Source: Candidatus Staskawiczbacteria bacterium (GTDB taxonomy: Bacteria > Patescibacteriota > Minisyncoccia > Minisyncoccales > Staskawiczbacteraceae). From it: a stretch of DNA of 64,000 nt. This document shows positions 3,724 through 37,580 of the stretch, in pieces. The stretch spans positions 6,354 through 70,353 of the forward strand of contig CAIMWV010000015.1 in assembly GCA_903845295.1 (NCBI GenBank), given 5' to 3'. Position 1 is the first letter of the stretch. Every line of letters starts with the position of its first letter. The notes beneath the pieces were generated by a model that saw only the letters and a list, made by a program, of their open reading frames with translations, was not told the origin of the DNA and searched no databases. Position numbers and translations under genes: made by a program.

Positions 3724-3796
3724 GGGCGCTTAGCTCAGTTGGTAGAGCATTTACTTGACGTGTAAAGGGTCATAGGTTCGAGTCCTATAGCGCCCA
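3724..3796 (+). tRNA. tRNA-Val (anticodon GAC)
   Basis: Acceptor gggcgct/agcgccc, anticodon arm tttac-ttgacgt-gtaaa, T arm atagg-ttcgagt-cctat. Confidence 0.9.
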
Positions 3797-3892
3797 CCGG
3801 GAATTTAAAAATTTGCGAAAACTATGGGTTTGCCCAGTGATAAACACTGGGCGTCGGGTGTTAATCACCCGACGAGTCCTATAGCGCCCACA
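3797..3892 (+). repeat. tRNA-trailing mini-insert ending in a 19-bp duplicate of the tRNA-Val 3' end
   Basis: cgagtcctatagcgcccac occurs at 3779-3797 and again at 3873-3891. Two hairpins (gcccagtg..cactgggc, gtcgggtg..cacccgac) sit just before the second copy, which ends 1 nt before the RluA-family ATG. Confidence 0.6.
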
Positions 3893-5231: not shown

Positions 5232-5418
5232 GGGCGCTTAGCTCAGTTGGTAGAGCACTTCATTTATTCACCCCGTTAAATTTTGGACGATTAGCTCAGT
5301 TGGCTAGAGCGTCTCACTTACACTGAGAAGGTCGCAGGTTCGAGTCCTGCATCGTCCACCAAAAAATATTTAACGGGGCAAGCTGAAGGGGTCATAGGTT
5401 CGAGTCCTATAGCGCCCA
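5232..5418 (+). tRNA. Interrupted tRNA (identity unclear) whose anticodon region carries a 114-121 nt insert containing tRNA-Val(TAC)
   Basis: The 5' half gggcgcttagctcagttggtagagcacttca (5232-5262) and 3' half tgaaggggtcataggttcgagtcctatagcgccca (5384-5418) form a complete acceptor, D, anticodon-stem (cttca/tgaag) and T-arm set. Confidence 0.5.
5285..5361 (+). tRNA. tRNA-Val (anticodon TAC), CCA encoded, nested inside the interrupted tRNA
   Basis: Acceptor ggacgat/atcgtcc, anticodon arm tctca-cttacac-tgaga, T arm gcagg-ttcgagt-cctgc. Confidence 0.9.
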
Positions 5419-5564
5419 CATTATTAATTTTAAGACGCCGAAGGTGTTTTAAAATTAATAAATAATAGGTTCTATGTGGCGAGAACCTATTCCCCGAATT
5501 GTCCCGAGCCAGCAGGCGAGGGAGCAATGCCTTCGGGCAACTCTTCGAGTCCTATAGCGCCCAC
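5419..5564 (+). repeat. tRNA-trailing mini-insert ending in a 21-bp duplicate of the preceding tRNA 3' end
   Basis: ttcgagtcctatagcgcccac occurs at 5399-5419 and 5544-5564. Internal hairpins are present. The 20-nt motif gcaatgccttcgggcaactc (5524-5543) is identical to 14872-14891. Confidence 0.55.
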
Positions 5565-5574
5565 CAAATTTAAT

Positions 5575-11808: not shown

Positions 11809-12032
11809 AAAATAATCCCGACTTCCTGATAGAAATCGTTTGACTCTATTAACGTTAAATCTATTTATTATTTATCCATTTTACCATCAGCAAGCACCCT
11901 TGTCCATAGACAGACACCATTTTTATCCCCAGCTATTCCCCATATAAAAAGAGTAAGAATCTGCCCGAAACATGCGCTTTTAGGCCGAAAAACCGCCCTT
12001 TACAGCGATTTTTTGCCGATTCGGTGGTTTGT

Positions 12033-12116
12033 GTGCCCCTAGAACCTCCATTTAAGGTTTAGGAAACCTTCGCCCTATCTTCCCCCCCCACACCAATGCG
12101 CCCTCGGGAGGAATCT
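12033..12116. pseudogene. Rearranged fragments of tRNA-Arg(CCT)
   Basis: gaacctccatttaaggtttaggaaacct.cg.cctatc and gccctcgggaggaatc duplicate parts of the intact gene at 12217-12288 but in permuted order. ccccacaccaatgc is the inverted copy of gcattggtgtgggg at 12287-12300. Confidence 0.5.
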
Positions 12117-12180
12117 CACCGGCAGTTCTCGAAAGCAACAAGGGGGCTGGAGTTTCTCAACCTTCCCAAAGACAATATAA

Positions 12181-12214
12181 AACCTGGGGCGCTAAATAGC
12201 GCCCCAGGTTTTCT
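12181..12214 (-). terminator. Hairpin terminator downstream of tRNA-Arg(CCT)
   Basis: 12-bp stem aacctggggcgc/gcgccccaggtt, loop taaata, T-rich flanks. Confidence 0.5.
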
Positions 12215-12216
12215 TG

Positions 12217-12288
12217 TGCCCTCGGGAGGAATCGAACCTCCATTTAAGGTTTAGGAAACCTCCGTCCTATCCGTTGAACGACGAGGGC
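12217..12288 (-). tRNA. tRNA-Arg (anticodon CCT)
   Basis: Reverse complement gccctcg...cgagggca, anticodon arm gaggt-ttcctaa-acctt, T arm ggagg-ttcgatt-cctcc. Confidence 0.9.
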
Positions 12289-12425
12289 ATTGGTGTGGGG
12301 CAAATTGAACAACAAGGGCTTTGTTTATTTAATACGTTAACACAATTTTTATAAAACTGCAAGTTGCTATTTTATAGATTATTCTGATATAATTATTCAA
12401 TTACTCAATATTAAAATTTAAAAAC

Positions 12426-14796: not shown

Positions 14797-14914
14797 CAAA
14801 GCCTGGATTTAAATACAAAGCAATTCGAGGGAGGATGAGAACCTCCACCCCCGGATTGCGAGCGAAGCGAGGCAATGCCTTCGGGCAACTCGGTTCGATT
14901 CCTCCCGAAGGCAC
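14797..14914 (+). repeat. tRNA-trailing mini-insert ending in a 23-bp (1 mismatch) duplicate of the tRNA-Arg(TCT) 3' end
   Basis: ggttcgattcctcccgagggcac at 14775-14797 versus ggttcgattcctcccgaaggcac at 14892-14914. The second copy is preceded by gcaatgccttcgggcaactc (14872-14891), identical to 5524-5543. Confidence 0.55.
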
Positions 14915-14917
14915 CAT

Positions 14918-34151: not shown

Positions 34152-34391
34152 TTACAAAAATCTTTTGTTCGTGAATGCATATCCCGAGCTCGATTTAAGA
34201 TATCTTTCAAAATCGTATGCTTTTTTCTTGCTTAAAAAAGCGCAGTACCAAATTAATTCATATGGTCGCTTTGGATTAGAATATTTAGCATTCCCAGAAT
34301 TATGTTCTTTAATACGCCTTTTCAAATCAAAAGTGACTCCAAAATATCTGCTCTTATCTTTTTCGCTTTGCAAAACATAAACGTAAAACAT
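34152..34391 (-). CDS. GIY-YIG nuclease-family small protein
   Basis: Track ORF 34152..34568 trimmed to MFYVYVLQSEKDKSRYFGVTFDLKRRIKEHNSG...; the longer form would overlap tRNA-Ala. Confidence 0.8.
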   Translation of the reverse strand: MFYVYVLQSEKDKSRYFGVTFDLKRRIKEHNSGNAKYSNPKRPYELIWYCAFLSKKKAYDFERYLKSSSGYAFTNKRFL

Positions 34392-34508
34392 TGGAACTGC
34401 CCCACTCCGCCAAGGCTTCGCGGGGCACCACTTCGCTTTTTGAAAATTATTTTTCAAAAATTGTTTAGTGCTTGCACCGCGTAGCTCCGAACGAAGAGAG
34501 GAGCGAAG

Positions 34509-34582
34509 TGGTGGACCTGGGGAGAATCGAACTCCCGCCTCAGCAATGCGAATGCCGCGTAATGCCACTTTACTACAGGCCC
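34509..34582 (-). tRNA. tRNA-Ala (anticodon CGC), CCA encoded
   Basis: Reverse complement gggcctg...caggtcca-cca, G3:U70 pair, anticodon arm cggca-ttcgcat-tgctg. Confidence 0.9.
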
Positions 34583-34625: not shown

Positions 34626-34685
34626 ACTTCGCTTTACTAACTCTTTGCAGTTGCCTGCATTGAGCGAGCGAAGCGAGTCGAAGTG

Positions 34686-34833: not shown

Positions 34834-36348
34834 CTACGTTACCCAATATTTTTGTTTCGTCATTTCATCTTCTTTGGTTTCAATTTCCGATTTTTCTTCT
34901 TTTGATTTTTCTGCCATTTTTTTCAATTCTTTATCCGGCAATTTTCCTAATTTCAAAGCCTCTTTTTCCAAGAATTCTTTGGTATTTTTTTTAGGATCAT
35001 CTAAAACGTAACCCAATAGCACATCTAGGGTCTGGCCTATTCTTGGTCCTGGCTTTATGTTTAAAATCGACACCAGATCATTTCCGTTGATTTCCAGCAT
35101 TTTGGCAGAAATGGGGTCTTTGGAAACTTTTTCAATCAGATATTTTAAGTGCCTTAATTTATACGGTTCGGCTTTCGGCACCCCCGACCCTATTCTGTCA
35201 GCCTGGCGCACCTGCAAAAGCTCTTCCATGTTTTCCAACCCTACATTTTTTACCAATCTCCGCACAGATGCATCTTTGACCTCGTCAACATTGTAATAAA
35301 ATAAATGGTATCTTACAAGCTTGGTTATTTTCTCAACATCTTTTTTGGGAAATTTCAAATTATTTAGAATTTGGAAAGCCATCCTGGCCCCCACAATTTC
35401 ATGGTTATAAAAAGTCGCGTTTTCCCCCTCCCCGGATTTAGCTTTAGGTTTTCCAATGTCATGCAACAAGGCGGCCAATCTCACATGCATATTAAATTTT
35501 TTCTTTGCAGTATATTCCAAAGATTTTATTGCGTGCTGGTAACAGTCGTAAATATGGTGTTTGTTCTGCGAAACGCCGTAATTATCCAGAAGCTCGGGCA
35601 CAATATATTTTAACAGCCCTAGTTCCCTCAGCAATTCGATTCCCGCCGAAGGCCCTGAGGACATTCGGCTGAGCTCAGTCGAAGCCCCTGTCGAAGGGTC
35701 TGCCATTATTATTTTTACAAATTCGTCCCTGATTCTTTCTTTAGAAATCGCTTCCAGCCAGATGCTATTTTTTTTAATTGCCTCGGCGGTATTTTTTTCA
35801 ATTGCAAAACCCTTCGACCCGCTCAGGGCAGGTCCAAGCGTTGTTGCAAACCTTACAGCCCTCAGCATTCTTAAGGCATCTTCATCAAATCTTTCCTCCG
35901 GATTTCCGACAGTTTTTATTATCTTGTTTTTCAAATCTTTTTGTCCATCAAATAAATCAACAATTTTCTTTTTCTCATCCATCGCCATCGCATTTATGGT
36001 AAAATCCCTCCGGCTTAAGTCATCCTCAAGAGTTTTGGCATATTTTACTTGGTCAGGATGTCTTTTATCAGAATATTTTGCCTCAAGCCTGTAAGTTGTA
36101 ATTTCAATTTCCGCCAATTCAGGGCTTTTGCTGCCGGTTCTTGCGGTAACTGTCAAAAAATTATTTTCATAAAAACTATTGGGAAACACTTTTTGGATTT
36201 CTTCGGGCTTAGCATTAGTTGTAACATCCCAGTCTTTCGGTTCTATGCCAAGTAAAAAATCGCGCACGCATCCGCCCACGACATACGCCTCGTAACCTGC
36301 TTTTTGCAAATCTTGGATTATTTTTTTTACTTCTTTAGGAATAGCCAT
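34834..36348 (-). CDS. cca: CCA-adding enzyme / poly(A) polymerase-family nucleotidyltransferase with HD domain
   Basis: 504 aa. GGCVRD...DWDV head domain, RDFTINAM, HD motif LLHDIGK. Contains two in-frame G+C-rich inserts. Confidence 0.85.
   Translation of the reverse strand: MAIPKEVKKIIQDLQKAGYEAYVVGGCVRDFLLGIEPKDWDVTTNAKPEEIQKVFPNSFYENNFLTVTARTGSKSPELAEIEITTYRLEAKYSDKRHPDQVKYAKTLEDDLSRRDFTINAMAMDEKKKIVDLFDGQKDLKNKIIKTVGNPEERFDEDALRMLRAVRFATTLGPALSGSKGFAIEKNTAEAIKKNSIWLEAISKERIRDEFVKIIMADPSTGASTELSRMSSGPSAGIELLRELGLLKYIVPELLDNYGVSQNKHHIYDCYQHAIKSLEYTAKKKFNMHVRLAALLHDIGKPKAKSGEGENATFYNHEIVGARMAFQILNNLKFPKKDVEKITKLVRYHLFYYNVDEVKDASVRRLVKNVGLENMEELLQVRQADRIGSGVPKAEPYKLRHLKYLIEKVSKDPISAKMLEINGNDLVSILNIKPGPRIGQTLDVLLGYVLDDPKKNTKEFLEKEALKLGKLPDKELKKMAEKSKEEKSEIETKEDEMTKQKYWVT
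35642..35699. repeat. Compound G+C-rich mini-element (inside cca; encodes DPSTGASTELSRMSSGPSAG)
   Basis: cccgccgaaggccctgagg...gagctcagtcgaagcccctgtcgaaggg. Confidence 0.6.
35810..35829. repeat. G+C-rich mini-element copy (inside cca, opposite orientation; encodes ALSGSKG)
   Basis: cccttcgacccgctcagggc. Confidence 0.6.
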
Positions 36349-37081: not shown

Positions 37082-37154
37082 GCCCTCATAGCTCAGCTGG
37101 TAGAGCAGTTGCCTCTTAAGCAATTGGTCACAGGTTCGAATCCTGTTGAGGGCA
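37082..37154 (+). tRNA. tRNA-Lys (anticodon CTT)
   Basis: Acceptor gccctca/tgagggc, anticodon arm gttgc-ctcttaa-gcaat, T arm acagg-ttcgaat-cctgt. Confidence 0.9.
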
Positions 37155-37155
37155 C

Positions 37156-37428
37156 ATGTTCTATGTTTATTTTTTATTTTTAAATAACCAAAATATTTAT
37201 AAAGGATTTACTGCCGATTTAGAAAGAAAAATCGAATAACACAAAACAGGAAGGGTTGCATCAACAAAAAATAAAAATCCGACGCTTATCCACTATGAAG
37301 CCTATCTGCTAAAAACAGATGCGGAAAGGCGCGAGAGATTTCTCAAAACTACTGAGGGCAGAAGATTGCTTAAACAACAATTAAAAGATTTACTAAATAA
37401 ATTAGGTTCGTCAGGTCATTCGACCTGA
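37156..37428 (+). pseudogene. GIY-YIG nuclease gene with in-frame TAA (37237-37239), inserted at the tRNA-Lys 3' end
   Basis: MFYVYFLFLNNQNIYKGFTADLERKIE*HKTGRVASTKNKNPTLIHYEAYLLKTDAERRERFLKTTEGRRLL... parallels the intact copy at 34152..34391. The stop replaces the conserved Glu (GAA to TAA). Confidence 0.7.
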
Positions 37429-37466
37429 CGCCCAGTCGGATGACTGGGCGAATCCTGTTGAGGGCA

Positions 37467-37495
37467 CCCTTCGACTCGCTTAGCTCGCTCAGGGC
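37467..37495. repeat. G+C-rich mini-element copy (intergenic)
   Basis: cccttcgactcgcttagctcgctcagggc. Confidence 0.5.
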
Positions 37496-37580
37496 GAACT
37501 TCTTTACAAAAGAACAAAATTAGAGTATATTATATCTATTATTAACCTTGGACGCCGGAAGCGCCCTTGTATATTAAAAA

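Follow-up and report, generated by a model that had tools for sequence, protein, structure and literature searches.

A disabled GIY-YIG nuclease cassette fused to a tRNA-Lys gene, and a family of probable tRNA-gene mobile elements in Patescibacteria

The tRNA-Lys locus and its cassette

The DNA analysed here, a stretch of 64,000 nucleotides (nt) from contig CAIMWV010000015.1 of a Candidatus Staskawiczbacteria bacterium (assembly GCA_903845295.1) that we refer to as the window, carries a transfer RNA (tRNA) gene, tRNA-Lys(CTT), to which a small insert is fused. Together with the tRNA end that it duplicates, this insert (the cassette) measures 312 base pairs (bp), and its contents are one small broken gene for a GIY-YIG nuclease and a conserved pair of hairpins. 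The features of the locus are as follows.

37082-37155, plus strand: tRNA-Lys(CTT), the intact, functional copy, whose 3' end abuts the cassette (ARAGORN; Rfam tRNA, 75.9 bits).
37137-37155, plus strand: repeat copy 1, inside the intact tRNA, comprising T-loop C56, the acceptor 3' strand, the discriminator A and a C (exact 19-nt repeat).
37156-37428, plus strand: GIY-YIG pseudogene of 90 codons plus TGA (37426-37428), with an in-frame TAA at 37237-37239, codon 28 (translation; Pfam PF01541, E = 1.2e-8).
37405-37409, plus strand: GGTTC, the cassette-borne 5' half of the T-loop box, directly 5' of the hairpin pair (sequence).
37410-37449, plus strand: conserved 40-nt double-hairpin module (hairpin 1, 37410-37429; hairpin 2, 37430-37449).
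37449-37467, plus strand: repeat copy 2, the displaced resident tRNA-Lys 3' end (T-loop G57/A58 to 3' end), still on its ancestral flank (exact repeat; junction as in the cassette-free locus L087).
37468-37500, plus strand: GC-rich terminator-like hairpin, originally next after the tRNA (terminator-like site 37485-37497; motif CTTCGACTCGCTTMGCTCGCTCA).
37503-37531: promoter-like site, next after the terminator-like hairpin and assigned to rpsO.

A first-pass annotation, made from the letters of the window, had described a GIY-YIG gene or pseudogene at a tRNA-Lys 3' end, bracketed by a 19-bp direct repeat of that end. The tRNA is called by both ARAGORN and Rfam and the repeat is exact: the window contains two copies of the 19-mer CGAATCCTGTTGAGGGCAC and no more (37137-37155 and 37449-37467), and shuffled sequence gave zero matches to it even when 2 mismatches were allowed (0 expected by chance), which rules out a chance origin. 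The only open reading frame (ORF) between the two copies is that of the GIY-YIG protein; no tyrosine or serine integrase lies inside. The two hairpins, GTCAGGTC-ATTC-GACCTGAC and GCCCAGTC-GGAT-GACTGGGC, were likewise correctly placed in a second copy of the T loop, since they stand between GGTTC and the GAATCC of repeat copy 2 and thus split the T-loop box; folding of this region, compared with shuffles, gave z = -5.3.

The ATG of the pseudogene follows tRNA-Lys with zero gap, as had been described, and the terminal codons of the ORF (GGT TCG TCA GGT CAT TCG ACC TGA) overlap the T-loop half-box and hairpin 1. The match to PF01541, which is above the gathering score, was obtained with the internal stop read as sense; given the TAA at codon 28, the window copy cannot yield a full-length protein. 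Sequencing error as the source of this single in-frame stop is ruled out by two further loci (loci are given L numbers throughout), L089 and L090, which come from independent assemblies of other samples and are 100% identical to the window over ~4 kb, TAA included. Because both carry it, the stop is no read error of a single assembly, and the pseudogene is real and fixed in the L089/L090-type population. One part of the earlier description has to be corrected, however: the TAA was said to replace the conserved Glu, but in the family alignment (A1) the codon hit is E28, a mostly E/D position directly before an invariant His, and the catalytic Glu is probably the invariant E60. The window copy retains all the invariant (Y15, G17, R25, H29, E60) and near-invariant (Y3, Y5, E48) positions of this alignment.

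Both filled and empty versions of the site exist among close relatives. Contigs that encode an identical S15 protein either carry the cassette (L089 and L090, identical to the window) or lack it (L087, L088 and L091); the latter three are 94.8% identical to the window downstream and have neither a GIY-YIG gene nor the module at tRNA-Lys/rpsO. The presence of the cassette at a conserved site is therefore patchy among close relatives (three filled sites, including the window, and three empty ones), as is characteristic of homing genes. The cassette-free tRNA-Lys 3' end, ...GTGAGGGCAC, runs straight into CCTTCGA..., the flank of repeat copy 2 in the window, and the junction of that copy (...TGAGGGCAC joined to CCTTCGA) is the same tRNA end/flank junction as in L087. 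As the L087-type empty site joins the same flank, copy 2 is the resident 3' end; copy 1 was brought in, or made, by the insertion.

A cassette family in two mirror forms

A protein search returned 239 homologues, nearly all the named ones from Patescibacteria (the candidate phyla radiation, CPR). The closest homologues of the window ORF are 80-88% identical to it, full length at 90 amino acids, and share an odd C-terminus, ...LGSSGH(S/T)T, that is encoded by GGTTC and hairpin 1. Gene context was compared at 80 loci taken from species-representative genomes, in which a single peptide pattern gave 385 confirmed matches, and the expected tRNA adjacency was computed from how densely tRNA genes occur in the outer flanks of these loci. 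An intact same-strand tRNA abuts the ORF in 64 of these 80 loci from other species, against 0.46 expected, and a tRNA and/or the hairpin module is adjacent in 77/83 loci. The ORFs of homologues P0016 and P0018, which are intact and 83% identical to the window ORF, begin directly after tRNA-Arg(GCG), and that of P0026 directly after tRNA-Leu(TAG); more distant members occupy Gly, Asn, Ser, Thr, Ile, Gln, Tyr, Pro and Cys tRNAs, and members are also present in metagenome-assembled genomes (MAGs) of Verrucomicrobiota, Kiritimatiellae and Planctomycetota. Two cassette copies (L007 and L016) lie in one MAG, and broken ORFs recur (the window, L011, L019, L024 and L069). In the gene tables examined for a subset of loci, none of the genes beside the cassette was called as an integrase, which agrees with the earlier statement that a GIY-YIG nuclease is the only enzyme carried; the sole rve-domain gene, ~1.5 kb upstream in L003, is of the DDE type and not a tyrosine integrase. 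Full-text literature searches found no description of this cassette family, and Patescibacteria GIY-YIG genes have been predicted to be horizontally transferred to other bacteria (PMC12455944). The family is large, widespread, found mainly in the ultra-small bacteria of the CPR and apparently undescribed.

Closely related cassettes occupy different host tRNAs: copies with 75-88% amino acid identity sit in tRNA-Lys(CTT), tRNA-Arg(GCG), tRNA-Glu(CTC) and tRNA-Leu(TAG), with the local tRNA end duplicated each time. Nucleotide similarity between the window, L001, L002 and L007 begins at the ATG and ends with the module, beyond which each locus continues with its own tRNA end, so that the alignable unit has shared termini and runs from the ATG through the end of the module.

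Two architectures were recognized. In class I, the window form (~20 loci), the order is intact tRNA, ORF, GGTTC plus module, and a local copy of the tRNA 3' end. The ATG lies 0-22 nt past the tRNA, the ORF is 88-106 amino acids long and reads into GGTTC plus the module, and the 3' copy spans the local tRNA from C56 to 0-4 nt past its 3' end. This copy is exact or near-exact in several loci (19/19 nt in L007 and L008, 23 nt in L022, 22 in L035, 25 in L042, 18 in L043 and 19 in the window), decayed in L001, L009, L025, L038, L050 and L083, and replaced or interrupted in L002. Class II is the commonest form, with 34 complete loci and further ones at contig edges. Here a tRNA 5' fragment (position 1 to 56) is followed by the module, GAATC(C), a 10-45-nt leader, an ORF of 82-95 amino acids and, 2-18 nt past it, an intact tRNA of the same isoacceptor. 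The fragment aligns with the intact downstream tRNA from position 1 exactly to the module, at identities from 100% (L021, L053, L054, L055 and L057) down to ~75% (L078). Where fragment and intact tRNA differ in L013 and L015, the changes are compensatory and lie in the variable arm and acceptor strand; the fragment therefore comes from another functional allele. Attempts to restore the upstream tRNAs by excising the module in silico recovered only 3, as the upstream pieces are 5' fragments, and ARAGORN in intron mode called only inner or intact tRNAs in the split or nested regions.

Perfect duplications of the local tRNA are 18-25 nt long in class I, compared with 54-71 nt in class II, and both classes share a single scheme of fragment, module, ORF and intact tRNA, with ORF and tRNA co-oriented. 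The two classes are intermixed on a rough protein tree. Tandem units in L017 and L045 and stacked fragments in L026 and L075 reflect repeated invasion of the same gene; the two tRNA ends that flank the tandem unit of L017 are non-identical.

The module is present in most family loci, with the consensus GYCNNGTCATNCGACNNGRC GCCCNGTCGRATGACNGGGC. In 42 of 57 double modules it is flanked by TC/GA (the slash marks the break), that is, the break falls between C56 and G57 of GGTTC/GAATCC; a minority of breakpoints lie at CTC/GAAA in the anticodon loops of tRNA-Ser(CGA) and tRNA-Arg, or in the D loop. At positions -5 to -1 before the module, counted over 65 cases, G, G, T, T and C occur 51, 52, 56, 55 and 61 times, respectively. 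The apical cores of the hairpins, GTCATNCGAC and GTCGNATGAC, are mutual reverse complements, and the module with its flanks is therefore pseudo-symmetric. Covariation was assessed in 50 modules chosen by the apical motif alone, so that the stems lay outside the selection. The stems show 98.9% paired cells, 12 of their 16 pairs are changed on both sides (125 cells), and the covariation value was reached in 0 of 500 shuffles. G-T pairs are only slightly more frequent than A-C mismatches (11 versus 5); the numbers are small and would suit a DNA hairpin or cruciform no less than an RNA structure. Conservation of the module is also stronger than that of the reading frame: 39 of its 40 positions are invariant among the window, L001, L002 and L007, whose ORFs differ at many third positions. 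Neither the hairpins nor the insert matched an RNA family, ribozyme or group I intron in searches of Rfam, at the gathering score and at E <= 10. Decaying tRNA fragments (L020, L036, L052, L066 and L068) also contain single 20-nt hairpins, with the core GTCATNCGAC or GTCGNATGAC, in their D and anticodon loops; some fragments hold several of these hairpins, and none was seen inside an intact tRNA in the loci read through.

With a profile of alignment A1, the closest solved structures are the UPF0213 proteins BH0048 (1zg2, E = 4.8e-13) and EF2693 (1ywl, E = 6.4e-10), the profile similarity extending across the whole domain as expected of a UPF0213 member; SLX1 follows as a weak match (E = 0.03-0.9). 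The family proteins have 80-106 amino acids, of which the Pfam domain takes up residues 1-69, with little beyond and no separate DNA-binding domain. They are thus bare catalytic domains of the stand-alone, structure-specific type, unlike the two-domain I-TevI. Neither NCBIfam nor PHROGs gave a family at threshold for either GIY-YIG protein of the window, and a tblastn search for phage relatives gave only weak Listeria-phage matches and nothing SegB-like.

Signals for expression were sought around the window ORF. No promoter-like site was found before or within it, and the cassette lies between tRNA-Lys and its terminator-like hairpin. The motif CTTCGACTCGCTTMGCTCGCTCA, which overlaps this hairpin, stands directly 3' both of tRNA-Pro(CGG) (34661-34683, minus strand) and of the resident tRNA-Lys end (37469-37491); a GC-rich stretch that resembles it is also found 3' of tRNA-Ala(CGC). 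In class II, the ORF stop lies 2-18 nt from position +1 of the tRNA and so leaves no room for a tRNA promoter. This arrangement leads us to infer that transcription of the cassette starts at the tRNA promoter.

A second GIY-YIG family and other interrupted tRNA genes

The window has only two GIY-YIG genes, and both lie downstream of tRNAs. The second is part of the following pair.

34152-34391, minus strand: second GIY-YIG gene, intact, 79 amino acids, of a different family (Pfam, E = 6e-16, above the gathering score).
34509-34582, minus strand: tRNA-Ala(CGC), 117 nt upstream of the second GIY-YIG gene.

This gene is indeed intact and downstream of tRNA-Ala, as the first-pass annotation had it, but with a 117-nt gap it is not directly downstream, and its product, 39% identical to the first family, belongs to a family of its own with 124 homologues. 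Members of that second family have a same-strand tRNA 26-287 nt upstream, commonly ~92-128 nt, in 37/80 metagenome loci. A lack of tRNA association among GIY-YIG genes elsewhere would have spoken against a tRNA-targeting element; the opposite was found, in both families. No tRNA-end repeat was seen for the second gene or its family, and the window gene lacks the double-hairpin module. In many second-family loci (L092-L171) a GC-rich hairpin stands just before the ATG, for example GCCCTCCGAAGCCTTGGCGAAGGAGGGC; its counterpart in the window is GCCCCGCGAAGCCTTGGCGGAGTGGGGC, at 34392-34440 (minus strand).

Other tRNA genes of the window are interrupted or duplicated in different ways. At 5232-5419, a complete tRNA-Val(TAC) gene (5285-5361), flanked by a 10-nt inverted repeat, ccccgttaaa / tttaacgggg, is nested in another tRNA gene, whose anticodon region it splits; this outer gene is the second tRNA-Val(GAC)-like gene of the window (the other is at 3724-3798) and is not called by ARAGORN in intron mode. 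Duplications of tRNA 3' ends that enclose no ORF occur at 14798-14916, where 94 nt of inserted sequence separate tRNA-Arg(TCT) from GGTTCGATTCCTCCCGAAGGCACCA, and at 5420-5566, where an insert of 124 nt stands between the tRNA-Val-like end at 5419 and TTCGAGTCCTATAGCGCCCACCA. The same 20-mer, GCAATGCCTTCGGGCAACTC, closes both inserts (5524-5543 and 14872-14891; 0 expected), and CCA is encoded in the second copies and not in the first. These inserts may represent another, ORF-less family of tRNA-end inserts.

A further arrangement is seen at 12032-12320 (minus strand), where an older tRNA-Arg(CCT), now degenerate, is interrupted in its D loop by a ~215-nt unit that contains tRNA-Arg(CCT) (12216-12288) and has the inverted repeat ccccacaccaat (12300-12289) / attggtgtgggg (12097-12086) at its boundaries. 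In L087 (2160-2400), a complete tRNA-Lys with a near-identical inverted repeat on its two sides, ccccacacacaccaatt / aattggtgtgggg, lies in the D loop of a resident tRNA-Lys, and both units look like a terminal-inverted-repeat mini-element with a replacement tRNA. A 43-nt hairpin with an AT-rich loop, ccctcacctagaaattttaatgttaaaatttctaggtgagggg, lies near the 5' end of the outer tRNA-Lys of L087 (2171-2213), with CATAGC on both sides like a short target duplication. Among the tRNA genes of the window there is also a gene for the CCA-adding enzyme (34834-36348, minus strand), of 504 amino acids compared with 495 in L087; its low-complexity stretches, for example ...STGASTELSRMSSGPSAG..., resemble in-frame GC-rich insertions. 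Many window tRNA genes encode just the first C of CCA.

Nature of the cassette and its parallels

Any account of the cassettes has to accommodate their architecture, the tRNA association, the conserved and covarying hairpins, the switches between tRNAs, the filled and empty sites, and the decay of fragments and ORFs. We favor, with a probability of roughly 0.7, the reading that 37156-37448 and the duplicated tRNA end form a recently disabled, minimal single-gene mobile cassette of tRNA genes, of the homing type and aimed at the T-loop box as is the phage enzyme SegB. The nuclease would recognize the universally conserved T-loop box GGTTCRANTCC in tRNA genes and break the gene, and repair of the break would copy the cassette from a donor, with the tRNA gene itself providing the homology. 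The cassette would bring or create the missing tRNA segment, so that an intact tRNA is restored each time; the resident segment that it displaces would stay behind with its T-loop box split by the hairpin pair. Having no promoter or terminator of its own, the cassette would lie inside the tRNA transcription unit and presumably be co-transcribed; its mRNA would be freed by tRNA processing, through RNase Z in class I and RNase P in class II, and capped at the other end by the hairpin pair. As alternatives to such a cap, the hairpins may be what the nuclease binds or cleaves, or may serve to destroy the box in the discarded fragment. In the clade of the window, the processed 5' end would fall on the AUG or 1 nt away from it, and translation is predicted to be leaderless. 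Since the sole functional tRNA would be the one fused to the cassette, selection should oppose an exact removal of the cassette, which amounts to an addiction effect. The first-pass annotation had already proposed a tRNA-targeting element that breaks the T loop and supplies a replacement 3' end, and the tRNA linkage, the breakpoint, the tRNA switches and the empty site all agree with it.

SegB is much larger than the cassette proteins and has a separate DNA-binding domain. It has been described as a free-standing GIY-YIG homing endonuclease of the phage T4 tRNA gene cluster, whose 27-bp site inside tRNA genes starts with GGTTCRANTCC and which cuts many tRNA genes, preferentially just after CCAR at the tRNA 3' end and with 2-nt 3' overhangs; its homing carries along flanking whole tRNA genes (PMC2330249). 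Like SegB, the cassette is a GIY-YIG gene amid tRNAs, the window repeat from C56 to the 3' end spans the interval from SegB box to SegB cut, and the ORF starts at the cut position. By this comparison, the class I junctions (the T-loop box, and 0-4 nt past the tRNA end) coincide with the SegB recognition box and cut site. In kind, the family is probably a new version of the free-standing homing endonuclease, of which SegB is the example. Unlike SegB, the cassette protein is a bare domain of 80-100 amino acids encoded in bacterial chromosomes, without any sequence relationship detectable by tblastn; and partial tRNA duplication, a hairpin pair and fusion of ORF and tRNA are not mentioned in the abstract and cleavage-site section (PMC2330249).

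Several points weigh against a homing cassette of this kind. A bare UPF0213/SLX1-type domain of 80-100 amino acids has no DNA-binding domain like that of SegB or I-TevI to account for recognition of the T-loop box, and tblastn gave no phage relatives beyond the weak Listeria-phage matches. The intact tRNA at a filled locus keeps an intact T-loop box, which leaves no obvious self-immunity. Simple homing also leaves unaccounted for both the matching tRNA segment that is found after a switch of tRNA species and the junction at tRNA position +1 or at the 3' end, and the intermixing of classes I and II on the rough protein tree implies an interconversion without explanation. Finally, as the window copy is a pseudogene, nothing at this locus needs to be active. 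There is a real, if low, probability that the family is instead a new class of mobile element, in which a structure-specific SLX1/UPF0213-type nuclease of 80-90 amino acids acts on its own extruded hairpins and on the stem-loops of tRNA genes (the TC/GA T loop, the anticodon loop or the D loop), in a cut-and-join reaction that would split the gene, duplicate the segment from breakpoint to end and make the cell depend on the cassette-linked tRNA; the single hairpins in decaying fragments would then be footprints of the same reaction.

A true transposon, for which staggered nicks in the T loop and at the tRNA end (by the nuclease or a host factor) would be followed by ligation and gap filling to give a target-site duplication, would suit the perfect local duplications of both classes in many tRNA species, the constant match of the duplicated segment to the local tRNA, even between close relatives, and the discreteness of the cassette proper from ATG to module. 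Class II, however, would demand staggered cuts 54-71 nt apart, the compensatory changes of L013 and L015 point to another allele and not to a fresh duplication, and the tandem unit of L017 has non-identical flanking tRNA ends; the same three observations weaken the simple target-site duplication at the tRNA 3' end that served as the initial model. As we also know of no strand-transfer activity in GIY-YIG enzymes, such a transposon appears improbable. Domestication, with the gene serving the host in tRNA operons as a repair, quality-control or defence nuclease and the fragments arising as by-products of local recombination, would be in keeping with the co-orientation and co-transcription-like placement with tRNAs across the family, with the tRNA linkage of a second, unrelated family of small GIY-YIG proteins, and with the nearest relatives, the UPF0213 proteins, being encoded by ordinary chromosomal genes. 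It fits poorly with the patchy presence and the empty site in a 94.8%-identical relative, the different host tRNAs of close relatives, the tandem arrays and multiple decayed fragments, the recurrent pseudogenes (in the window and four further loci) and the occurrence of the family in unrelated phyla, and we consider it very unlikely.

We give hardly any weight to the two explanations that remain. The tRNA genes are classic landing sites of integrase-driven islands, and direct repeats of tRNA 3' ends are the standard footprint of the latter; a direct repeat of the tRNA 3' part flanks the insert here and recurs in relatives, and the window contains several other tRNA-end duplications, so that the repeat could be read as attL/attR of a tyrosine-integrase element shrunk to ~300 bp with the GIY-YIG gene as leftover cargo. 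A remnant of this sort is hard to reconcile with a ~300-bp unit that recurs in dozens of species and tRNAs with GIY-YIG as its sole ORF and the same hairpin pair at the breakpoint, with the absence of any integrase call beside the cassette in the gene tables examined, where the one rve-domain gene, in L003, is of the DDE type and ~1.5 kb upstream, and with the mirror class II form, which is incompatible with an att remnant. The cassettes do resemble tyrosine-integrase islands and prophages in their insertion at the T loop and 3' end, the regeneration of an intact tRNA and the partial copy left as a direct repeat; they differ in having no integrase, in their size of ~300 bp, in the 5'-duplicating mirror form, in the hairpin pair at the breakpoint and in switching tRNA among close relatives. 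An RNA-level device, such as a T-loop intron or split tRNA from whose transcript the ORF and hairpins are removed, would explain why the hairpins covary as an RNA structure would and why class II has a 5' fragment and a 3' end both around the ORF. It is scarcely credible, given that a contiguous intact tRNA (tRNA-Lys in the window) is always encoded, so that splicing is unneeded, that Rfam finds no ribozyme core or intron family, that the extra fragments decay, become truncated and gain further insertions, and that G-U pairs are hardly commoner than mismatches. In its favor, group I introns are frequent in tRNA genes of Patescibacteria, but these lie in the anticodon loop and are ribozymes (PMC13011429), and nothing of the kind is present here.

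The best structure matches, to the UPF0213/YazA-YhbQ proteins and, weakly, to SLX1, are of the same size as the cassette proteins and likewise consist of the catalytic domain only. To our knowledge, UPF0213 proteins have no association with tRNA genes, no hairpin module and no mobility. In 'fractured genes', a free-standing endonuclease gene reportedly lies between the two halves of a protein gene, with repair at the protein level by split inteins; the cassettes differ in that the host gene is a tRNA gene and its function is kept by duplicating part of the gene.

The tRNA-targeting GIY-YIG enzyme that we found in the literature, SegB, is a phage protein, whereas here the nuclease is part of a ~300-bp bacterial cassette that occurs in over a dozen types of tRNA gene, throughout the CPR and in some other phyla. 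The cassette accounts for many tRNA pseudo-fragments in CPR assemblies, including ones that gene finders miss. It may also offer a route to a very small nuclease, alone or combined with hairpins, that is directed at a DNA motif of universal conservation. Should it function in the way proposed here, the cassette would be among the smallest autonomous mobile elements, and it would show a route by which a parasite can enter the essential single-copy RNA genes of tiny genomes without killing its host, and by which it may resist loss.

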